Below are positions 1,992 through 22,067 of a DNA stretch of 64,000 nucleotides, in pieces. Under the pieces are notes generated by a model. That model was not told where the DNA came from. It saw nothing but the letters and a program-made list of their open reading frames with translations, and did not search any database. The DNA is taken from positions 17,627 through 81,626 of the forward strand of contig CACIRR010000001.1 in NCBI GenBank assembly GCA_902589095.1, given 5' to 3'. Made by a program: the position numbers and the translations under genes. Source of the DNA: an uncultured Alphaproteobacteria bacterium. Its GTDB lineage: Bacteria > Pseudomonadota > Alphaproteobacteria > HIMB59 > GCA-002718135. Positions within the stretch are counted from its first letter, which is position 1. Every line of letters begins with the position of its first letter.

Positions 1992-3155
1992 ATGGAAAAA
2001 CCTAATAAAAAACCTAATAATCCAAATTTCTCAAGTGGTCCCTGCGCTAAAAGACCTGGGTGGAAAATTGAAAATTTAATTAATGCAAATACAGGTAGAT
2101 CCCATAGGTCAGGTGAAGCAAAATTAAAACTTAAGCTAGTTATTGATAAATCAAAAGAATTATTGAAACTACCTGATGATTATGTTGTAGGTATTATGCC
2201 TGGCTCTGATACTGGTGCCTTAGAGGCATCTCTATGGTCTTTATTAGGTCAAAGAGGTGTTGACATACTAGCTTGGGAAAATTTTGGTAAAGATTGGATA
2301 CAAGATGTTGTCAAACAACTTCAAATTGAAAATTTAACGGTGCATGATGTTGATTATGGTCAATTTCCTGATGTAAGTAGAGTTAATTTCAAAAATGATG
2401 TTGTTTTTACATGGAACGGAACCACTTCTGGAGTTAAAGTTCCAAATGCTGACTGGATACCTGACAATAGAGAAGGTTTAACAATATGTGATGCTACCTC
2501 TGCAATTTTTGCAATGCCTATTGATTACAAAAAATGTGATGTTCTTACTTGGTCTTGGCAAAAAGTATTAGGAGGGGAGGCTGCACATGGAATGATTGCA
2601 ATGTCGCCACGAGCTCTGAGTCGATTAGAGAGTTTTAAGCCTTTATGGCCAATACCCAAGGTTTTTAGAATTGCTAATAACAACAAAATTATAAAAGGTA
2701 TTTTTGAGGGAAGTACAATTAACACACCCTCAATGATTTGTGTTGAAGATGCTCTGGATGGACTTAATTGGGCAGAAAAAAATGGGGGTTTGAATTTTCT
2801 ATTAGATACTTCAATTAAATCTTTTAACTTAATTTATAATTGGGTTGAAAAAAATAATTGGATAACTTTTTTATCTGAAAACAAAAGTAAGGAATACTTA
2901 TCAAATACTGGAATTACATTTAAAATATGTGAAGATTGGTATTTATCAAAAAATGAAGATGAACAAAGATCAATTGTCAAAAAAATTTGCAAAAAATTAT
3001 CCGATGAAAATGTCGCTCATGATATTAATGGTTATGCAAAAGCACCACCATCTTTTAGAGTATGGGCGGGAGGCACCGTTGAACCTTCAAATATTGAATT
3101 ATTACTCCCTTGGTTAGATTGGGCATATTCAGAAGTAAAGAAATCTTATGCCTAA
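1992..3155 (+). CDS. serC: Phosphoserine aminotransferase (long, alphaproteobacterial-type SerC)
   Basis: 387 aa. The N-terminus PNNPNFSSGPCAKRPGW and overall layout are typical of ~390-aa phosphoserine transaminases. It overlaps serA by 8 nt (ATGCCTAA). Confidence 0.88.
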   Translation: MEKPNKKPNNPNFSSGPCAKRPGWKIENLINANTGRSHRSGEAKLKLKLVIDKSKELLKLPDDYVVGIMPGSDTGALEASLWSLLGQRGVDILAWENFGKDWIQDVVKQLQIENLTVHDVDYGQFPDVSRVNFKNDVVFTWNGTTSGVKVPNADWIPDNREGLTICDATSAIFAMPIDYKKCDVLTWSWQKVLGGEAAHGMIAMSPRALSRLESFKPLWPIPKVFRIANNNKIIKGIFEGSTINTPSMICVEDALDGLNWAEKNGGLNFLLDTSIKSFNLIYNWVEKNNWITFLSENKSKEYLSNTGITFKICEDWYLSKNEDEQRSIVKKICKKLSDENVAHDINGYAKAPPSFRVWAGGTVEPSNIELLLPWLDWAYSEVKKSYA

Positions 3156-10579: not shown

Positions 10580-10813
10580 ATGATTAGATTTGTAATTGTT
10601 ATTCTTTTAATTTTATTGATTTTGTTCATTTTAAGGTCTCGATCCGCTAAAATAGGAAATATCAGTAAAAAAAATTATAGATTAATAATAATTTCTATTT
10701 TGGTTTTGGCTTTCTTAATTGTTGTAGCAACCTCCGGCAGATTTTTGTTGCCTCAATTATTACAATTTGTCAAAATAGGTCTTCCATTTTTAACTAAATT
10801 TATTGGCATATAA
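10580..10813 (+). CDS. Hypothetical small membrane protein (77 aa)
   Basis: Has a gaggt ribosome-binding site upstream and two or three hydrophobic spans. No recognisable motif. Confidence 0.4.
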   Translation: MIRFVIVILLILLILFILRSRSAKIGNISKKNYRLIIISILVLAFLIVVATSGRFLLPQLLQFVKIGLPFLTKFIGI

Positions 10814-10814
10814 T

Positions 10815-11675
10815 ATGTATTTTGCAAAATCTGATTTACCCATGAACTCTGAAATGATTAATTTTTGGAACGAAAATGGTTATTTGATAATAGAGGATTT
10901 CAAAACTAACGATGAATGTGATGCTTTAATTGAGAGATCAAAAGAGCTAATTGAAGAACAAGACTTTAATAACCAACAATCCGTTTTTGATACTGTCAGT
11001 CAGAGTCACAATGATGATAATTATTTTTTAGAGTCAGGAGATAAGATCCGTTTCTTTTTTGAAGAAAAAGCTCAACTTGATGAAAGTAACTTAAAAAAAA
11101 ATAAGCAATATATTGTAAATAAAATTGGTCATGCTCTTCACGACTTAGATGATACATTTATTAATTTTTCAAAAAATAAAGAGCTTAATGAAATTTCAAA
11201 GGCTATTGGTTTTAAAGATCCTCTTTTGCTTCAATCGATGTATATTTTTAAACAACCAAAAATTGGTGGCGAAGTTGTTTGTCATCAGGATTCTACATTT
11301 CTAAAAACAGAGCCTGAGAGCACTGTTGGATTTTGGTTTGCTTTGCAAGATGCAACTAAAGATAATGGTTGTTTGCAAGTTGCAAGTGGTGGACACAAAG
11401 GTCCCCTGAGAAAGTTATTTAAAAGGGAAAATAACAAAATGAAAATGGAAGAATTATCAAATGAGCCCTTTCCCGAGACTGATACTTTTGTAGAAGTTAA
11501 AAAAGGAACCTTAGTACTCTTACATGGACGATTGCCGCATTATTCTTGTGAAAATACTAGCCCTCATTCAAGGCATGCGTATACATTGCATGTAATTGAC
11601 GGAACAACAAGGTATATGGATTACAATTGGCTTCAAAGACCAAATCTTAAACTAAGTGGCTTTAAAAATGCCTAA
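10815..11675 (+). CDS. Phytanoyl-CoA dioxygenase (PhyH) family Fe(II)/2-oxoglutarate oxygenase
   Basis: HQD iron-binding motif (VVCHQDSTF), distal His (HAYTLH) and PhyH-like N-terminus (FWNENGYLIIEDF). The start is moved to ATG 10815, 2 nt after the upstream stop, instead of the TTG at 10803. Confidence 0.78.
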   Translation: MYFAKSDLPMNSEMINFWNENGYLIIEDFKTNDECDALIERSKELIEEQDFNNQQSVFDTVSQSHNDDNYFLESGDKIRFFFEEKAQLDESNLKKNKQYIVNKIGHALHDLDDTFINFSKNKELNEISKAIGFKDPLLLQSMYIFKQPKIGGEVVCHQDSTFLKTEPESTVGFWFALQDATKDNGCLQVASGGHKGPLRKLFKRENNKMKMEELSNEPFPETDTFVEVKKGTLVLLHGRLPHYSCENTSPHSRHAYTLHVIDGTTRYMDYNWLQRPNLKLSGFKNA

Positions 11676-12612
11676 AAAAATTATTTTGGATTGTGATCCA
11701 GGGCATGATGATGCAGTAGCTATAATGCTTGCAATAGCGAGTGATGATATTGATTTATTGGGAATTACATGTGTAGGAGGAAATGCAACATTAGAAAATA
11801 CAAAACTAAATGCACTGAAAATTTGCTCTTTATTAAAACGAGAAGATATACCAATTTATGCAGGATCAGATAAACCATTAAAATATGATTTAGTTACAGC
11901 AGAACATGTGCACGGCAAAAGTGGATTAGATACAGATGGTGAGCCAATAAATTTAGATCCAAGTCATAAGATTGAAGAAATGAGTGCTATAGATTTTATA
12001 ATTAAAGAATGTAAAAATGCTGAAGAGCCCATTTATTTATGCCCTACAGGGCCTTTAACAAATATAGCTTTATGTCTTCAAAAAGATCCATCAATAAAAG
12101 ATAAAATTAAAGAAATAGTATTAATGGGTGGTGCTGCATTGTGCTTAGGTAATATCACACCAGCAGCAGAATTTAATATCTATGTTGATCCTCATGCGGC
12201 AAATGTTGTTTTTAATTCTGGTATTGAAATTACAATGATGGGATTAGATGTAACGCATAAAGTTAATGTTAATGATCAAATAATAAATTCTATCAAAACA
12301 AATAATAATAAAGCCTCTGTTTTCTTTGCTGACCTTATGGATTTTTATTCAAGATTTCATCAAGAATTATATGAAACAGGAGATTGCCCACTTCATGATC
12401 CTTGCGTAATTGCCTACCTAATCGACAATGAAATATTCAAAGGAAAAAAAGTTCATGTTCAAGTAGAAGAAAACTCGGATTTAACTAGAGGTGAAACAGT
12501 TGTGGATTGGTTAGGAGTCAAAAAACTTAATCCCAATTGTAATGTTATAACTGAAGCTGACTCTGATAGATTTTTTAAAATTTTAAAAAAAGAACTAGCT
12601 AAACTAAACTAA
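11668..12612 (+). CDS. Nucleoside hydrolase (inosine-uridine preferring, IUNH family)
   Basis: N-terminal DCDPGHDDAVAI aspartate cluster signature. The ATG at 11668 gives the typical MPKKIILDCDPG start and overlaps the PhyH stop by 8 nt. Confidence 0.9.
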   Translation: MPKKIILDCDPGHDDAVAIMLAIASDDIDLLGITCVGGNATLENTKLNALKICSLLKREDIPIYAGSDKPLKYDLVTAEHVHGKSGLDTDGEPINLDPSHKIEEMSAIDFIIKECKNAEEPIYLCPTGPLTNIALCLQKDPSIKDKIKEIVLMGGAALCLGNITPAAEFNIYVDPHAANVVFNSGIEITMMGLDVTHKVNVNDQIINSIKTNNNKASVFFADLMDFYSRFHQELYETGDCPLHDPCVIAYLIDNEIFKGKKVHVQVEENSDLTRGETVVDWLGVKKLNPNCNVITEADSDRFFKILKKELAKLN

Positions 12613-13510
12613 ATTTTTTTGCAATTTTGCCCGCTAACAAAGCGTTATTAACAATTAAAGCTGAATTTGCCTCTAAAGATTTATTTTTAGAAAGAGAGTT
12701 AATTTCTGAAATCAAAAATGGAGTCACATCTTTTCCCGTAACATTTAATTGTTTAGCCTTATCAATTGATAGCTTTATCCAATTTTGAATGATATTTTTA
12801 TCAATTGCTTTTTCCTTTGGTACTTTATTAAATATTAAGACTGATGATTGATGTTCGTAATCTTCTAGAATTTTTAAATAGTTTGCAATGTCATTAATAC
12901 TAATAAAATTTTTATCTACTTTAAAGTCAGTTTCTTCATACCAAAATCCTGGCATGAAATCTGAGTTATATGCAATTCTAGGTATTCCAAAAGTCTCTAA
13001 CTTTTCAAAAGTTTTTTCTAAATCTAAAATTGATTTTGCCCCACTTGATATAACAAACATTTTGTTTCTGCTAAGTTGAGTCAAATCTGCTGAAACATCA
13101 CTATTTTTTTCTGCACCTAAATGTACACCACCAATTCCACCAGTGGCAAAAAAATTAATTCCAACTTTAGAGGCGATACTTATTGTGGTAGCCACTGTTG
13201 TTGCCGCATGTTTTTTTTCATAAATGGATAAAGATATGTTGTGCAGAGATACTTTGTCTATATTTGTGCTAGTAGCTAAAATATTTATCTCTTCATCATT
13301 TAAACCTATTTTAATTTCACCATTAATGATGCCAATTGTAGCAGCAACAGATCCGCTTTCTTCAACAGCTTTTATCGAGTCATTAGCAACTTTTATATTT
13401 TCAGGGTAGGGAAGACCATGACTAATTAATGTACTTTCTAATGCTACTAGAGGTTTGCCTTCATTTATTGCATTGCTTACTTTGGGATCTATTTTAAATT
13501 TACTAAACAT
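12599..13510 (-). CDS. psuG: Pseudouridine-5'-phosphate glycosidase
   Basis: 303 aa with ALESTLISHGLPYPEN and GGIGGVH motifs characteristic of PsuG/YeiN. Confidence 0.9.
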   Translation of the reverse strand: MFSKFKIDPKVSNAINEGKPLVALESTLISHGLPYPENIKVANDSIKAVEESGSVAATIGIINGEIKIGLNDEEINILATSTNIDKVSLHNISLSIYEKKHAATTVATTISIASKVGINFFATGGIGGVHLGAEKNSDVSADLTQLSRNKMFVISSGAKSILDLEKTFEKLETFGIPRIAYNSDFMPGFWYEETDFKVDKNFISINDIANYLKILEDYEHQSSVLIFNKVPKEKAIDKNIIQNWIKLSIDKAKQLNVTGKDVTPFLISEINSLSKNKSLEANSALIVNNALLAGKIAKKFSLV

Positions 13511-14411
13511 TTAAATCTTCTTTTTGAATTTTAGTTTTATTTATAATTTTTTTTATATCAACTTCTTTAAACTTAGTATTTTTTTTACTTTTAGCATGCA
13601 CAGTTCCAGTAGCCACACCTAATGAAAGAGATTTTTCTAATGATAAATTTTTATATCGATAATAAATATAACTTCCAGCCATAGCATCACCTGCTCCATT
13701 TTCATTTAAGACTTTAATTTTAGGTGGTTTAACAGAAATAAATTTGGATAATTCATATCCATATGTTTTATTTGAACCATCAGAAACTACCAAATTAATA
13801 ATAGGGTTTTTTTTAATAATATATTTTATAGACTTATGAATATCTCGAATATTGGTTAACTTAAACAATTCTTCTTTATTCAGTATTAAACAATCTATTT
13901 TATTTAAATAACTTTTTATTTTATTAATTTTAAATGGTGAGGTACCACATATAATTATTCTGTTATTTTTATAATATTTTTCAATTATTTTTTTTGTTAA
14001 TATTTCTGAAAAATTTAAATCGATTATCACATGCTTTTCCCTTAATCTAAAATTTATTGATTTTACCGTACATTGTTCATAAGCGTCAGTATTTGCTATG
14101 CCTAGTTGTAATTCTTTAAATTTATTTAATAAAACAGCATAATATCTTTTTTGAATCTTTTTATTAAAAGTAAAAAAATTAATATTATTTTTTTTTAAGT
14201 AATTTATCGTTTCAATATCTGAATTAATTGAAACTAATGAAACTTTTTCCTTGCATGCTATCACTTTTGCAACATTATGAGCAACACCGCCAAAGCTTTC
14301 ATAATGTTTAACAGGATTTGTTCTAAATTTGATTAAATGATTTTTTAATTCAAAAACAAAATCTTGATGAACGGCTCCAAAAAATATAAAATTATTATAA
14401 ATTTGTTTCAT
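13503..14411 (-). CDS. psuK: PfkB-family sugar/nucleoside kinase, probable pseudouridine kinase
   Basis: PfkB C-terminal motif (NENGAGDAMAGS). It overlaps psuG by 8 nt, mirroring the psuK-psuG pairing in other bacteria. Confidence 0.7.
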   Translation of the reverse strand: MKQIYNNFIFFGAVHQDFVFELKNHLIKFRTNPVKHYESFGGVAHNVAKVIACKEKVSLVSINSDIETINYLKKNNINFFTFNKKIQKRYYAVLLNKFKELQLGIANTDAYEQCTVKSINFRLREKHVIIDLNFSEILTKKIIEKYYKNNRIIICGTSPFKINKIKSYLNKIDCLILNKEELFKLTNIRDIHKSIKYIIKKNPIINLVVSDGSNKTYGYELSKFISVKPPKIKVLNENGAGDAMAGSYIYYRYKNLSLEKSLSLGVATGTVHAKSKKNTKFKEVDIKKIINKTKIQKEDLNV

Positions 14412-14430: not shown

Positions 14431-17400
14431 ATGTCAGTTTTTAATGAACAGCCACCTTTAATTAATGTTAAAAAATTTTCCTTATGGTTAAAAAATAATT
14501 ATCCTTTTTTAAAAACAAAGAATTTCAAATTAATAAGATTAAATAGCGAAAGAGATATAAATTTTGTTATTAAATTTAATGAAAATAAAAAATATGTTGT
14601 TAAGATTTCTAACCCCAAAGAGTCTTTAAAGCAGTTAGAATATCAGGATTTATTAATTCAGCATTTACGATCTAATAGACAATTAAAAGAAATCTATCCA
14701 AAAATTCTGCATAAAAAAATTTTATTTTATGAAGATAACAAAAATAGAGTTTGTGCAGTTAGGTTATTGACTTACATAAATGGAAATATGTATGCAAAAT
14801 CAAAAATTAATACTTCTATAGAAAAATCATTAGGTAAATTATTGGCTATACAATCTAAACAGTTAAATAGTTTTATGCATTCTCAAGCAATGCGAATTTT
14901 TGACTGGGATCCCTCAAATATCATATGGGTTAAAAAATTTTTGAGTTTATTTAGTGGGTTCAAAAAAGATGTAATTATTGAGTCAATAAAACAACATGAA
15001 CTATTTGTTCAAAAAAATAAAAAGAACTTAAAACATTCTGTTACTCACGGAGATCCTAATGACTATAATATAGTTGTTAAAAATGAAAAAATAGTTGGCT
15101 TGATTGATTTTGGTGACTCAATTTATGCACCTTCAATAAATGATCTTGCAATTGCACTTTCGTATTCTTTAACGCAAAGTCAAAATTTATTTGATACTCT
15201 CAATAATATAGTTGGCTCTTACAATAAAATTTATCCCATTAATGATTATGAAATCTACTCATTGTTTAGTCTTATAAAATCACGCCTAGTAATTACGCTT
15301 GTAATGGCTGCTAAACAAAGAAAGAAATATCCAGACAATAGATATCTAAGTATTAGTGAAAAAAATGCATGGTTGTTAATTTTTAAACTCAATAAAATTG
15401 ATCCTTATTTTTTTATTGCTGTAATCAGAAGTATTTGCAATAAAGAACCTATAGGTAATTTTAGTCAAAAACTTGATCTTTTGAAAAGTCAAAAATTTGG
15501 AAATATTTTTGATTTTGATCTAAATGATGTGAATAAAAAAATTGTTAACTTTGATAAAAGCAGTATTTTACTTAAATCAAATCCCTCAAACTTTAGACTT
15601 AATAACCTAGTCAAAAAATTTTTAAAAAACGATATTGGTATTGGTTTATATAAAGAAAAAAGAAAAGTTTATAAAAGTAATCATTATATCTCTTCACTTA
15701 ATTCCTCTAAAAGAAGAGATATTCATTTAGGCATAGATATTTTTATTGATGAAACAACTCCTATTAGAGCACCTTTAAGTGGAAAAGTAGTAATTTTACA
15801 TAATAATGATTTTAAATATGATTACGGACCTACGGTAATTTTAGAGCATAAAATTAGTATTTATAAGTTTTATACCTTGTATGGTCATTTATCAAAAAAA
15901 TGTTTGAAGAAATTAAAAGTTGGACAGTCTATTAATAAGGGAGACTGGATAGGTGAAATTGGAGGCTATAACGTTAATGGCAATTGGCCCCCACATTTGC
16001 ATTTTCAAATTATGACATCACTATTAAGTGAAGTTGATAATTTCCCTGGAGTAGGTGAAGAATATTTGCTCAAGATTTGGGAGCAAATTTCACCTGATCC
16101 AAACATCATACTAAAAATTCCTAAAACTTTTTTTACTAACAAATCTAAAATCCTAAATGTTTTATCAAAAAGAAAAAAGAACATAGGTCTTAACTTATCA
16201 ATCTCATATGAAAAACCACTCCATATGCTTGAGGCAAAAGATCAATACTTTTATGATGAGAATGGTAGAAAATATTTAGATTGTGTTAATAATATTTCAC
16301 ATGTTGGGCACTCAAATAGCTATGTTCATGAAGCTCTTGTAAATCAAAATCTTAAATTGAATACTAATACTCGGTACCTTTATGATATTATTAATGAATA
16401 TAGTGAGCGAATATTAAAAACTTTTCCAAAAAAATTAAACAGAATATTTTTTGTTTGTACAGGTTCAGAAGCCAATGATTTAGCATTACGAATTGCAAAT
16501 AATTATACAAAGGCAAATCACATCCTCGTGATGGATAATGCCTATCATGGTCATACTAATTCTCTGATAAACATCAGTCCCTACAAATTTAATAGTAAAG
16601 GGGGTGAAGGTAAAAAAGATAATATCCACATCTTAAGGATGCCAGATGAAATAAGAGGAAAATGGAATGCTAAAAATTCTAAATGGATAAATAACTATAC
16701 TAACGAGGCATTAGAATTTATCAATGAAATGTTCTTAAAAAAATATTCTTTATCAAGTTTTTTTTTCGAGAGTATATTAGGATGTGGTGGTCAAGTTGTA
16801 TTGCCCAAAGGATATCTTAAAAAAATTGTTAAATTAGTTAGAAAAAATAATGGTTTATGCATTGCCGATGAAGTACAAACTGGTTTTGGGAGAGTGGGTA
16901 ATTATTTCTGGGCATTTGAGGAGCATGGCATTGTTCCTGATATAGTCACCTTAGGCAAACCTATGGGTAATGGACACCCTATTGCAGCAGTTGTAACTAC
17001 TGAAAAAATTGCAAAAAGTTTTAATAATGGAATGGAATATTTTAATTCTTTTGGTGGTAATCCAGTTTCTTGTGCAGTTGGTAATGCCGTTCTTGATGTA
17101 ATTCAGAAACAAAATTTACAAAAAAATGCAAAAAAAGTTGGTAATTATTTTATAAATAAACTTCAAAATATCAAAAAAAAATTCCCAAAGTATATTAGTA
17201 AAATTAGTGGAAGGGGGCTTTTTATTGGTATTGACTTGATTGAAAATTCAAATTTTGACTTACCTAATCAAAAACTTGCAACAAAATTAATCAATAACTT
17301 AAGATTAAAGGGCATTCTTTTGAGCACTGATGGCCCGTATAATAATGTAATCAAAATTAAACCACCATTAGTTTTCAACAAAGATAATGTTGATTATGTT

Positions 17401-17445
17401 TGTAGTGAGATAAATAATTTTTTACTGCATGAAAATAAAAAATAA
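14431..17445 (+). CDS. Three-domain fusion: aminoglycoside-phosphotransferase/hydroxylysine-kinase-like domain + M23 peptidase domain + class-III aminotransferase-fold (phospho-lyase-like) domain
   Basis: Kinase catalytic loop HGDPNDYN (H206-N213) and DFGD. M23 zinc motifs HLGID (H432-D436) and HLH (H522-H524). Class-III PLP domain has [17 protein letters not shown] and a lysine in [12 protein letters not shown] (K843), closely resembling the ETNPPL/PHYKPL family signature. Confidence 0.85.
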
Positions 17446-18021
17446 GCCATAAAATAGCATTAGAAATCCCATTATATTATCAATGTAAAACCATATTTTT
17501 TTTGATTGTGTGTATTTAGATAAATAATTTGAAAAATAACCAATACTAAAAAAAAATATAAAACTTGAAAATATTGCACCTAATCCAAAATATATTTTGT
17601 CATCAAAATTTACAGAAATAGAGCCTAAAAGAACTACAGTATCTAAGTATACATGAGGGTTAGCGTAAGTAATAGCTAGAGTAGTAAATACCACTTTAGC
17701 AAAACTTGCTCTGCCATATTCTTTCGTATCAAAAAATTGATTTCTTGAGTTCTTTATTTTATTTATTCCGTATAAAATTAACCAAATTCCTCCAATTATT
17801 TTCATCATTGTAACTGTAAAGTTATTCAAACTTAAAACACTATTTGAAAGATAAATTCCACATATAATAAGTAGACTATCAGACAAACTACAAATTAAGA
17901 CAACTGCAAATGTATAATTTTTTTTTAATCCTTGGTTAATTACAAATAAATTTTGAGGACCTATTGCAACTATTAAAGTCATTCCAATTATAAATCCTTG
18001 AATAAAATCTGATATACTCAT
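17422..18021 (-). CDS. LysE/ArgO family amino-acid exporter
   Basis: 199 aa. The N-terminus GFIIGMTLIVAIGPQNLFVINQG is typical of LysE/ArgO. Its 3' end overlaps the convergent fusion gene by 24 nt. Confidence 0.85.
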   Translation of the reverse strand: MSISDFIQGFIIGMTLIVAIGPQNLFVINQGLKKNYTFAVVLICSLSDSLLIICGIYLSNSVLSLNNFTVTMMKIIGGIWLILYGINKIKNSRNQFFDTKEYGRASFAKVVFTTLAITYANPHVYLDTVVLLGSISVNFDDKIYFGLGAIFSSFIFFFSIGYFSNYLSKYTQSKKIWFYIDNIMGFLMLFYGLFFIFMQ

Positions 18022-18047: not shown

Positions 18048-18515
18048 TTGATCATAATGAAAGTTTTTACAACTATAACATTTATTATTATATTCAGTAC
18101 ATCTCTTCTTGCTGAAATAAAAAAACCTTCACCAGACATTAAACCTGAAGATGTTATAAAAATTCAATTATCTTCTCTAATGAAAAATAATGAGCCCTAT
18201 TTAAATGCTGGTATAGAACAAACGTGGGAGTTTGCCCATCCCTCTAATAGAGCATTCACTGGACCCCTTCAAAGATTTACCAACATGATGTATGCTCCAT
18301 CTTACGCTGTTATGTTGGATCATTCAAAACACGAAATTCTAGAAGTTAAACTAGATAACAATACTGCCTATTTTTTTATTGAGCTTACTGCTTCTGATGG
18401 AAAAATGTTTGGATTTAAATGGACATTAGAAAAAGTCATGGAAGAAGGTATGTTTAAAGATTGTTGGATGACCACTGCTGTCTCTACGCCTATGCCTCTT
18501 TCCACATCATCCTAA
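18048..18515 (+). CDS. Secreted protein, possibly DUF4864-like
   Basis: Has an N-terminal signal peptide. The body loosely resembles the DUF4864 pattern (IQLSSL...AFTGPLQRFTNMMYAPSYAVML). The family call is from memory only. Confidence 0.4.
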   Translation: MIIMKVFTTITFIIIFSTSLLAEIKKPSPDIKPEDVIKIQLSSLMKNNEPYLNAGIEQTWEFAHPSNRAFTGPLQRFTNMMYAPSYAVMLDHSKHEILEVKLDNNTAYFFIELTASDGKMFGFKWTLEKVMEEGMFKDCWMTTAVSTPMPLSTSS

Positions 18516-19162
18516 TGTGTGGAAGATTTGCAAGCTATAAAAATCTTAATAAATTAAAAGATGTATTCAACTTTAACAATTCAGATTTCAAGATATCTCC
18601 ATCTTTTAATATTTCGCCAGGTCAAGATGTAAATATAATTATAAATTATAAACACGAAAATTATTTTTTACATTCTAATTGGGGTTACAATTTTATAAAT
18701 AAAAACACTCAAAATAAACAGACTGTTATCAATAGTAGAATTGAAACTATAAATACTAAACTTCTTTTTAAGGATTCATTTTTAAAAAGAAAATGCATCA
18801 TTCCAGCCAATGGATATTTCGAGTGGTGTCAAAAGGAAGGTGAAAAAAAACCTTATTTTCTTCAATTAGGTGAGGGTGAATTAATATATTTTGCAGGTGT
18901 GTGGAGGAAAGAAAAATATAATGATGATAAAAGAAGAGTTTTTTCAATCCTTACAAAACCAGCAAACAAAAAAATAAGTGAAATTCACCACCGAATGCCA
19001 TTAATTTTTAACCCAAATGATGCCCAAGAATATTTAGATAGAAAAGATAATAATTTAAATTTTGATCATCAAGAGGATATTGATTTAAACTACGTTGAAG
19101 TTTCTAAGTACGTCAACAATCCTAAAAATAATGATGAAAAATGTATTATGGCTATAAATTAA
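18515..19162 (+). CDS. yedK: SOS-response-associated peptidase (SRAP / YedK-type abasic-site processing protein)
   Basis: The start is set at ATG 18515 so the protein begins MCGRF, with the invariant catalytic Cys2 of SRAP proteins. The HHRMP motif is present. The ATG overlaps the upstream stop (TAATG). Confidence 0.85.
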   Translation: MCGRFASYKNLNKLKDVFNFNNSDFKISPSFNISPGQDVNIIINYKHENYFLHSNWGYNFINKNTQNKQTVINSRIETINTKLLFKDSFLKRKCIIPANGYFEWCQKEGEKKPYFLQLGEGELIYFAGVWRKEKYNDDKRRVFSILTKPANKKISEIHHRMPLIFNPNDAQEYLDRKDNNLNFDHQEDIDLNYVEVSKYVNNPKNNDEKCIMAIN

Positions 19163-20732: not shown

Positions 20733-22067
20733 ATGCTAAAATCTAACCAATCACATCATCTATATGGTTTTACAGATTTAAAAACCTTAAATGAGAGAGG
20801 TCCTTTGGTTATTTCACATGGTAAAGGTATTTACGTATTTGATATTCATGATAAAAAATATTTAGATGCCAATTCAGGTTTGTGGAATGCATGTGCTGGT
20901 TTTGATCATCCCGGTTTAATAGAAGTAGCTCAAAAACAATATGCTAAATTTGCTGGTTATCACTCTTTGTTTGGAAGACTCCCAGAAGAAACTCTAGAAC
21001 TTGCAGATAAAATTATAGAAGTGTCTCCATTTGATGAAGGAAGAGTCTTTTTTTGTAATTCAGGATCAGAGGCAAATGATACGATGGTAAAAATGTTGTG
21101 GATGCTTAATGCTAGAAAAGGAAAACCAAACAAAAGAAAAATAATTACAAGAATAAATGGCTATCATGGAGTTACACTCGGTGCAGCATCGATGACTGGC
21201 AAACCCTATAACGGAGAGTTCCAATTACCCTTAGATGGATTTATTCATGCTGATTGCCCTCATTATTGGAAATTTGGCAAAGAAGGCGAATATGAAGAGG
21301 AATTTTCAAAAAGAATGGCAAATAATTTAGAGAAGTTAATTTTAAAAGAAGGCGCGGACACAATTGCAGGTTTTGTGGCTGAACCTGTTCAGGGAGCTGG
21401 TGGCGTAATTCCACCTTCAATAAATTATTTTGATTTAATTCAACCAATTTTAAAAAAATATGACATTCCTCTTGTTGCAGATGAAGTAATTTGTGGTTTT
21501 GGAAGAACAGGAAATTTATGGGGATGTGAAACATACAACATTAAACCAGATATCATTATTTCTTCTAAGTGTTTAACGGCAGGATATTTTCCAATGGGGG
21601 CAGTAATTGTAAATAAAGACTTTGCTGATGAGTTTACATCTGTGTCAGAAGACGCAGAAGAATTTCCTCATGGGTTTACAGCAGGAGGGCACCCAGTTGG
21701 CTGTGCAATAGCATTGAAAGCAATTGATGTAATTATTAATGAAGGTTTGTTAGATAATGTAAGAAGTGTATCACCATATTTTCATGAGAGACTTAATGAA
21801 TTTAATGACTATGAGCATATTGGTGAGACAAGAGGAATTGGACTCATGGCTGCTCTAGAAATGGTAAAAAATAAAAAAACAAAAGAACCTTTTGAAGGCC
21901 ATTTAAACATGGGTGATAAAATTGCAAATATGTCAATTGACAATGGTTTAATTTGCAGACCTTTAGGACCGGCTATTGTTTTATGTCCGCAATTTATAAT
22001 CAATAAAGTTCAAATAGATGAAATGTTTGATAGTCTTCACAATACTCTGAAACAAGCCTTTAATTAG
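20733..22067 (+). CDS. Class-III amine:pyruvate (omega) aminotransferase
   Basis: 444 aa with GSEANDT and DEVICGFGRTG, a lysine in SSKCLTAGYFPMGAV, and a tail EEFPHGFTAGGHPVGCAIALKAIDV...ICRPLG that closely resembles characterised Vibrio-type omega-transaminases. Confidence 0.88.
   Translation: MLKSNQSHHLYGFTDLKTLNERGPLVISHGKGIYVFDIHDKKYLDANSGLWNACAGFDHPGLIEVAQKQYAKFAGYHSLFGRLPEETLELADKIIEVSPFDEGRVFFCNSGSEANDTMVKMLWMLNARKGKPNKRKIITRINGYHGVTLGAASMTGKPYNGEFQLPLDGFIHADCPHYWKFGKEGEYEEEFSKRMANNLEKLILKEGADTIAGFVAEPVQGAGGVIPPSINYFDLIQPILKKYDIPLVADEVICGFGRTGNLWGCETYNIKPDIIISSKCLTAGYFPMGAVIVNKDFADEFTSVSEDAEEFPHGFTAGGHPVGCAIALKAIDVIINEGLLDNVRSVSPYFHERLNEFNDYEHIGETRGIGLMAALEMVKNKKTKEPFEGHLNMGDKIANMSIDNGLICRPLGPAIVLCPQFIINKVQIDEMFDSLHNTLKQAFN

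Follow-up and report, generated by a model that had tools for sequence, protein, structure and literature searches.

What is a domain of peptidase family M23, whose fold is regarded as a cell-wall hydrolase fold, doing in the middle of a cytoplasmic metabolic enzyme? The question is raised by a gene at positions 14431-17445 of a 64,000-nucleotide (nt) window, the whole stretch of DNA analysed here, from an uncultured alphaproteobacterium of the HIMB59 lineage (contig CACIRR010000001.1, positions 17,627 to 81,626 of the forward strand). Alignments show three intact active-site signatures in its one cytoplasmic chain of 1004 amino acids (aa): those of a small-molecule kinase, of an M23 peptidase, and of a pyridoxal 5'-phosphate (PLP)-dependent enzyme of the phospho-lyase type. 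We consider it fairly probable that the product is a self-contained cytoplasmic catabolic enzyme, working as a kinase and then as a phospho-lyase, in which the intact M23 module most likely supplies a third activity. While the kinase-lyase pair itself is already textbook, what appears to be new here is a clade of M23 domains without signal peptides, whose catalytic residues are invariant in our alignments and which are more conserved than the kinase domain that accompanies them.

A single gene for a three-domain protein

The gene and its predicted domains are as follows.

14431..17445, + strand: fusion gene with an ATG start, a 1004-aa open reading frame (ORF), from the ORF list and translation; a divergent member of NCBIfam NF004799/PRK06148
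14527..15444, + strand: predicted APH-fold small-molecule kinase domain, aa 33-338 (Pfam APH, AlphaFold2 model, Foldseek)
15493..16125, + strand: central M23 module, aa ~355-565, made up of a pre-core segment, the core, and a post-core PDP motif (alignment to a stand-alone Vibrio tritonius protein)
15721..16017, + strand: M23 catalytic core, aa 431-529 (Pfam Peptidase_M23; codon positions verified)
16159..17424, + strand: class-III PLP domain, predicted phospho-lyase clade, aa 577-998 (Pfam Aminotran_3, PDB matches)

The DNA surrounding the gene is ~22-30% G+C, and all three Pfam domains (APH, Peptidase_M23, and Aminotran_3) exceed their gathering scores in the 1004-aa protein; a 1004-codon ORF with three Pfam domains in DNA of ~25% G+C is far beyond chance. 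The ORF coordinates and motifs on which the original prediction was built are all present at the positions given, including HGDPNDYN (206-213), DFGD (226-229), HLGID (432-436), YGHLS (484-488), HLH (522-524), and, as quoted, the 12-residue signature of the PLP domain at aa 839-850. Its statement that the protein lacks a signal peptide also holds: the N-terminus is hydrophilic, with no hydrophobic stretch and a maximum 10-aa Kyte-Doolittle value of 0.61 within the first 40 aa, and no transmembrane segment is predicted in the 1004-aa protein.

The prediction had named an assembly or sequencing fusion as the result that would undo it, and the relatives of the protein lend this no support. Independent marine assemblies contribute over 120 clusters of close relatives (58-96% identity), which agree with the window protein in length and in all three Pfam domains. 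Scanning one genome per species recovered 535 relatives, the closest of which come from single-cell genomes and a HIMB59-type metagenome-assembled genome (MAG) at 97% and 76% identity, so that the window is assigned to a streamlined marine alphaproteobacterium resembling HIMB59/SAR11. At all 47 of the loci checked, spanning more than 10 phyla, the match lies inside one uninterrupted ORF of 1001-1155 aa. In an exhaustive search with the kinase and M23 domains as query (aa 1-575; E <= 1e-30, 451 clusters at 50% identity), the two domains align as a single stretch in most of the best 150 of the 451 clusters. Likewise, all 120 top matches of a profile search carry all three Pfam domains, under source names that are merely generic. 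The 47 uninterrupted ORFs and the three-domain clusters, more than 120 of them close and more than 120 distant, rule out an assembly fusion, a sequencing fusion or a frameshift, and positions 14431-17445 are a genuine single gene for a three-module cytoplasmic protein. Split kinase-M23 proteins of ~580 aa were considered as a separate form and rejected, as the pile-up of matches at 550-620 aa is best explained by contig-end fragments that barely cover the 575-aa query.

The full-length AlphaFold2 model has a mean predicted local distance difference test (pLDDT) score of 90.6 and a predicted template modelling (pTM) score of 0.79; the latter suggests that the domains pack against one another in a defined, compact arrangement and are not strung out like beads. 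Besides residues 1-3, the sole segment with pLDDT <50 in this model is aa 867-872 (nt ~17029-17046), which lies within a conserved motif of the PLP domain, NNGMEYF, with six of the seven motif residues invariant in a 23-sequence alignment. This segment may be an active-site loop that becomes ordered only in the dimer or with substrate.

A widespread and catalogued family

Although the three-domain architecture had been described as unexpected, it proves not to be unusual: a curated model exists for it, and hundreds of clusters from many phyla share it. The protein matches PRK06148 (NF004799, "hypothetical protein") full-length and colinearly (protein 33-999 against profile 29-1009 of 1015; E 2.8e-301). 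Relatives that match over the full length, at 35-42% identity, come from Chloroflexota, Acidobacteriota, Bacteroidota, Verrucomicrobiota, Gemmatimonadota, Planctomycetota, Deinococcota, Actinomycetes, delta- and gammaproteobacteria, and Brucella. Kinase, M23, and PLP domains come in the same order throughout PRK06148, from which the window protein differs as an AT-rich divergent lineage (35-42% identity); judged by these profile and pairwise comparisons, it is best seen as either an outlying member or a sister lineage of this widespread, catalogued, uncharacterised bacterial family. The profile of the sister family NF004800 (PRK06149, "aminotransferase") touches the M23 region of the window protein marginally (E 0.085). 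Because the PRK06149 profile matches the stand-alone M23 protein described below (1.8e-9), the middle of PRK06149 is a more diverged M23-like segment.

Taxonomic labels within the family call for some care. The fusion proteins of eight loci (L036, L037, L038, L040, L041, L044, L052, and L075) form one cluster linked by pairwise identities of at least 60%, under labels as different as Chloroflexia, Blastocatellia, "Heliobacteriaceae", Acidobacteriota, and Anaerolineae, so either the gene has moved horizontally between phyla or some of the MAGs carry the wrong label. A sequence labelled "Klebsiella sp." (L071) groups with lake Chloroflexi.

A predicted kinase followed by a predicted phospho-lyase

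The original prediction assigned the C-terminal domain to the branch of class-III enzymes that includes ETNPPL and PHYKPL, and the structural database agrees. The domain is a class-III aminotransferase fold (Pfam Aminotran_3, PF00202, aa 597-996, 6e-79, 266 bits vs gathering score 30.5) with an invariant Schiff-base lysine, K843 (nt 16957-16959), in the motif GKPMGNGHP; the surrounding GKPxGNGxP pattern is invariant or nearly so. Its best PDB matches are human ETNPPL (6tor, 4.2e-126 over 422 residues) and the Arthrobacter phospho-lyase A1RDF1 (5g4i, 4.8e-89), with the next matches, racemases and GABA aminotransferase (GABA-AT), at ~1e-45. The nearest characterised relatives are thus phospho-lyases, not transaminases, and by these comparisons the domain belongs to the ETNPPL/PHYKPL/A1RDF1 clade.

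The N-terminal domain, as had been proposed, has the hallmarks of an APH-fold small-molecule kinase. It scores above the Pfam gathering threshold (APH, PF01636, aa 48-249, 1e-12, 48.8-52 bits vs 23.2) and carries the HxDxxxxN catalytic loop (H206-G-D208-x-N210-x-x-N213), a DFG-like metal-binding segment (D226-F-G-D229), and a putative ATP lysine (K58). D208, N210, N213, D226, G228, D229, and K58 are invariant in alignments of 48 and of 62 sequences. A model of this domain (pLDDT 92.3, pTM 0.90) retrieved with Foldseek the PDB structures of AmiN (amicoumacin kinase), type-II homoserine kinase (2ppq), YihE, NahK (N-acetylhexosamine kinase), APH(2'')/(3')/(9), and the microcompartment aminopropanol kinase 6ef6. 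Identity to the nearest solved relatives (amicoumacin kinase, type-II homoserine kinase, and aminopropanol kinase) is 12-15%; a PDB sequence search with the kinase domain gave no match, and the PDB holds no structure of the animal hydroxylysine kinase HYKK.

The same two activities are found together elsewhere. Animals have HYKK/AGPHD1 with PHYKPL (AGXT2L2) or ETNPPL (AGXT2L1), which follow the same logic, an APH-family kinase and then a PLP enzyme of class-III fold that eliminates phosphate and ammonia, except that the animal kinase and ammoniophospholyases are separate polypeptides without M23, whereas the window protein is fused and contains it. In 2012 Veiga-da-Cunha and colleagues reportedly noticed bacterial "bi- or tri-functional" fusions of AGXT2L-type PLP enzymes with APH-family kinases, and are said to have used them to identify hydroxylysine kinase and two ammoniophospholyases. 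Because this fusion logic has been known since that work, reading our protein as a kinase and then a phospho-lyase is established thinking and not a new inference. Two later papers (PMC12138971, PMC5714238) refer to Veiga-da-Cunha et al. 2012 (JBC 287:7246) as a discovery assisted by gene fusion or comparative genomics.

Bacterial two-gene routes make the same point. The enzymes of the two-gene amino-alcohol route, namely 6ef6 with the phospho-lyase of the Mycobacterium RMM/aminoacetone microcompartment and the Arthrobacter O-phosphoethanolamine phospho-lyase A1RDF1 (5g4i), are proposed to carry out the same chemistry as separate proteins without M23, in contrast to the fused, M23-containing window protein. 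Amino-alcohol kinase and O-phosphate phospho-lyase activities were described in Erwinia in the 1970s. Searches of plasmids also turned up pairs of adjacent genes, one encoding a 350-aa phosphotransferase and the other a 420-440-aa class-III enzyme, as seen in Rahnella, Azospirillum, Pseudomonas mandelii, and Sinorhizobium meliloti pSymA (L087), and none of these four loci has an M23 gene near the pair. The unfused kinases are 27-37% identical to fused ones and the PLP enzymes 36-45%. For the window protein the values are 27-30% for the kinase, compared with ~12% to 6ef6 in a structural alignment, and 36-38% for the PLP domain, compared with 43-45% for the fused rhizobial and Paracoccus PLP domains against the same lyases. 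The best PDB sequence match of an unfused kinase is the aminopropanol kinase 6ef6. Because such operons exist without M23, the core kinase-lyase chemistry does not need M23, and the M23 domain is an added module.

The unfused pairs are adjoined by a short-chain dehydrogenase/reductase (SDR) and a PotD-like ATP-binding cassette (ABC) transporter in Rahnella, P. mandelii, and S. meliloti pSymA, and by a GntR regulator in Rahnella, P. mandelii, and Azospirillum. The SDR beside the kinase-lyase genes was discarded as uninformative, its best PDB match being an uncharacterised Brucella SDR. S. meliloti has both forms, the unfused operon on pSymA and a three-domain gene on pSymB (L083, NC_003078.1 1203439-1206363) that sits behind a polar-amino-acid-type ABC transporter and an SDR, and is thus a ready genetic system for comparing them.

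The central module belongs to a distinct M23 clade

The middle domain matches Pfam Peptidase_M23 (aa 431-529, 1.8e-17, 63.8 bits vs gathering score 28.7), with H432 and D436 (HxxxD) and H524 as predicted zinc ligands and H486 (YGHLS) and H522 (HxH) as predicted catalytic histidines. Aligned residue by residue with the active M23 peptidases 2hsi, Pgp3/6jmx, 5kqb, and lysostaphin, it has all five catalytic residues in place, and these are found in 48 of 48 sequences of a cross-phylum alignment and in at least 135 of 139 representatives at 50% identity. The original prediction had called the module intact on inspection, and proper alignment bears this out; alignment to active enzymes and the invariance of these residues rule out a degenerate relic. 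Over 21 lineages, the mean pairwise identity of the M23 module (47%) exceeds that of the kinase domain (38%).

The module has a life of its own outside the fusion. A stand-alone M23 protein from Vibrio tritonius (WP_342609936.1, 223 aa, without a signal peptide) is 37.5% identical to aa 404-563 of the window protein and shares with the fusion proteins the pre-core GRYNExR and post-core PDPN motifs. As a query, it retrieved 5666 proteins at E <= 1e-10. The best 120 of these, from Vibrionaceae, Legionella, Bacteroidota, and others, are 203-248 aa long and contain no domain other than M23, with an N-terminus that is not hydrophobic in 117 of the 120. Invariant positions common to the middle module and these 120 proteins, outside the canonical M23 motifs, are G405, Y407, E409, R411, Y414, Y465-G-P467, H473, N516, W519, Q526, P555, and P557. 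Among NCBIfam models, the stand-alone protein best matches the middle of PRK06148 (4e-49), compared with 2e-9 for MepM, and a plasmid search at E <= 1e-15 returned the protein itself and the middles of three-domain proteins, and nothing else. No close solved structure for it is present in the PDB. Taken together, these comparisons assign the middle module to an M23 clade of its own, one that lacks signal peptides and occurs either fused or as stand-alone proteins of ~220 aa.

This clade shares its fold family and its HxxxD, H, and HxH residues with canonical M23 enzymes (LytM, lysostaphin, MepM, ShyA, and Pgp3), from which it differs by the extra invariant motifs GxYxExRxxY, DYGP, NGxW, and PDP. 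Canonical members are secreted or periplasmic and act on cell-wall substrates, whereas the window module is internal to a cytoplasmic protein, between ATP- and PLP-dependent domains; with no signal peptide or transmembrane segment in the chain, it does not fit the description of an exported peptidoglycan hydrolase. M23 folds that likewise do not cleave the cell wall directly are known in the degenerate LytM-domain factors EnvC, NlpD, SpoIIQ, and DipM. These have lost their metal ligands, whereas in the window M23 family both the ligands and the catalytic histidines are invariant. The invariance of the catalytic residues, together with the occurrence of the module as stand-alone homologues, disfavours a purely scaffolding role, one of the options offered in the original prediction. 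A comprehensive 2022 review of M23 functions mentions neither a fusion to aminotransferase or phosphotransferase domains nor a cytoplasmic metabolic role, and no relevant paper emerged from literature searches on PRK06148, on the three-domain protein or on M23 in the cytoplasm.

Around the stand-alone M23 genes the neighbourhoods are heterogeneous, the only recurring partner being a translationally coupled major facilitator superfamily (MFS) transporter in Vibrionaceae and Dongshaea. In Vibrio tritonius (L088, 7809-8480), Photobacterium damselae, and Dongshaea marina (L089 and L095), the M23 gene overlaps the stop codon of the upstream transporter gene, an overlap which suggests that the stand-alone M23 may act on an imported small molecule. 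At a further locus (L096), an APH kinase two genes away from a stand-alone M23 gene was considered as a possible unfused partner and dismissed: it reads as SrkA/YihE-like from sequence and as unrelated to the fusion-type kinases, with which it shares weak local similarity (E ~1e-4 over 70-100 residues).

Proposed function and alternatives

Because the PLP domain appears to fall in the phospho-lyase clade and the N-terminal domain to be a small-molecule kinase, the route put forward in the original prediction, phosphorylation followed by elimination of phosphate and ammonia, is still the best reading. By homology, the substrate of the APH-fold kinase would be a compound with a terminal 1-amino-2-ol group, whose hydroxyl the kinase would phosphorylate at the expense of a nucleoside triphosphate; ethanolamine, 1-amino-2-propanol, 5-hydroxylysine or a related molecule are candidates. 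The PLP domain, acting as ETNPPL, PHYKPL, and A1RDF1 do, would then bind the free amine as an external aldimine and eliminate both phosphate and ammonia, leaving an aldehyde or ketone; this would provide nitrogen and phosphorus to an oligotrophic marine alphaproteobacterium of HIMB59/SAR11-like type. The M23 module would most likely contribute a third activity on a small cytoplasmic molecule. As to its nature we can only speculate, and the guess we favour is that it hydrolyses an amide in which the amine of the amino alcohol is masked; the N-CH2 group of such an amide might mimic the glycine accepted by Gly-specific M23 enzymes.

Several observations weigh against this proposal. The window protein scores 1002.2 bits against PRK06148, short of its curated cut-off of 1128 bits, a threshold passed by orthologues from S. 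meliloti pSymB, Paracoccus seriniphilus, Brucella, and a Chloroflexia MAG (1208-1710 bits at 36-42% identity). Activity data for any member of the three-domain family were not found in the literature. Gene context does not indicate a substrate either, since among the 139 neighbours of 25 diverse loci, covering 201 Pfam families, no conserved partner recurs in more than six; the commonest neighbour families are generic methyltransferases and tetratricopeptide repeat (TPR) proteins. The amidase idea in turn is without contextual support, because the neighbourhoods of the stand-alone M23 genes are heterogeneous.

One alternative keeps the kinase and lyase steps and makes the M23 module non-hydrolytic, its zinc site holding or channelling the O-phospho intermediate, or serving as a structural or regulatory zinc-dependent interface. 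The zinc site of active LytM is indeed said to bind phosphate in crystals as a tetrahedral transition-state mimic, as reported by Firczuk and colleagues in 2005. The position of the module between two catalytic domains in every member, the fixed interdomain packing suggested by the full-length model (pTM 0.79), the unfused operons in which the chemistry works without M23, and the failure of gene context to yield an amide substrate or an amidase-related partner are all in keeping with such a role. Against this, stand-alone proteins of the same clade (~220 aa), with no adjacent kinase or lyase, have retained its invariant residues, an argument for a module that functions autonomously and is no mere linker or channel, and the invariance extends to all five catalytic residues, including the two histidines that are not ligands. 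We regard a non-hydrolytic module as unlikely, while taking it seriously.

Amino-alcohol catabolism itself could be the wrong frame, with the PLP domain acting as a transaminase, racemase or ammonia-lyase on another phosphorylated or aminated metabolite (for example an antibiotic- or opine-like one) and the APH domain as a kinase for resistance or modification. Among the top fold matches of the N-terminal domain are indeed the antibiotic kinases AmiN and APH(2'')/(3')/(9), the rhizobial copies adjoin polar-amino-acid-type ABC transporters on megaplasmids, and class-III enzymes are functionally plastic, as shown by the PbfA ammonia-lyase, whose NCBIfam model also matches the window protein at 199 bits (PMC8154272). 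Yet the PLP domain is more than 40 orders of magnitude closer to two proven phospho-lyases than to other solved class-III enzymes, the best PDB sequence match of the unfused kinase is an aminopropanol kinase, and fusion of a kinase to this PLP clade is the very association that led to the animal kinase/lyase pair, leaving this explanation quite improbable in our judgement. A fused or degenerate artefact is more remote still: with one ORF at 47 of 47 loci, more than 120 close and more than 120 distant three-domain clusters, and invariant catalytic residues, its probability is negligible.

For the preferred reading, a catabolic kinase and phospho-lyase with a catalytic M23 module, the wider interest lies in the middle domain. 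A conserved and catalytically intact-looking cytoplasmic M23 clade would extend the known roles of the M23 fold, and we tentatively raise the possibility, to which we give rather less than an even chance, that the central module and its stand-alone relatives are the first M23-fold enzymes with a cytoplasmic metabolic role, whether as amidases or as a zinc site for a phospho-intermediate. Were the amidase reading true, one protein would house a three-step assembly line, "deconjugate, phosphorylate, eliminate," that could matter for the scavenging of organic nitrogen and phosphorus by abundant marine HIMB59/SAR11-like bacteria. In streamlined oligotrophs, one gene that converts an amino alcohol into an aldehyde, ammonia, and phosphate would be a compact nutrient-scavenging device and would merit inclusion in models of marine dissolved organic nitrogen and phosphorus use. 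The three-domain gene is present both in a model organism (S. meliloti pSymB) and in very abundant marine lineages.

Genomic context

The genes around the fusion gene are these.

10803-11675, + strand: PhyH-family Fe(II)/2-oxoglutarate dioxygenase, four genes upstream of the fusion gene
11656-14411: nucleoside salvage cluster, consisting of an inosine-uridine nucleoside hydrolase (+), the Indigoidine_A/PsuG-type gene (-), and the PfkB gene (-)
12599-13510, - strand: Indigoidine_A/PsuG-type glycosidase, on the divergent side of the fusion gene
13503-14411, - strand: PfkB kinase, divergent from the fusion gene across a 19-nt gap
17422-18021, - strand: LysE/ArgO-type exporter, convergent, with a 24-nt overlap at the 3' end of the fusion gene

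The neighbours are those originally described, a convergent and overlapping exporter on one side and pseudouridine-type genes, divergent across the 19-nt gap, on the other. The start codons of the PfkB gene and the fusion gene are 19 nt apart, and both promoters must therefore lie inside coding sequence; a scan for promoters and terminators at the locus gave nothing above background. The best matches of the LysE-family exporter are the L-lysine exporter and ArgO models, both below their cut-offs. Its arrangement is kept in all four HIMB59-like loci examined and is conserved in the HIMB59-like lineage only. Two further lineages, lake Chloroflexi (L071, L072, and L076) and Gemmatimonadota (L056), have a homologous PhyH gene at a distance of two to four genes from the fusion gene, and PhyH could be the hydroxylase that makes the amino alcohol, or a coincidence. 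At five loci a gene of the ornithine cyclodeaminase (OCD)/mu-crystallin family lies just upstream, the fusion proteins concerned falling in two of the 60%-identity clusters. The PhyH, OCD/mu-crystallin, and LysE genes are weak hints, compatible with a lysine- or ornithine-like hydroxy-amino acid and not discriminating.

Other features were noted elsewhere in the window.

18461-19162, + strand: SRAP (SOS-response-associated peptidase, YedK-like) gene
20733-22067, + strand: second class-III aminotransferase, which passes NCBIfam PRK06105 (552.9 bits vs cut-off 517)
667-751, + strand: glycine riboswitch aptamer (Rfam RF00504, 70.4 bits)
799-1989: ORF of 396 aa with no NCBIfam match
1992-3155: serC, phosphoserine transaminase

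The second class-III aminotransferase is unrelated to the phospho-lyase clade, and the predicted start of the SRAP gene overlaps a preceding weak DUF4864 ORF. The glycine riboswitch aptamer lies directly upstream of the 396-aa ORF, which is followed by serC.

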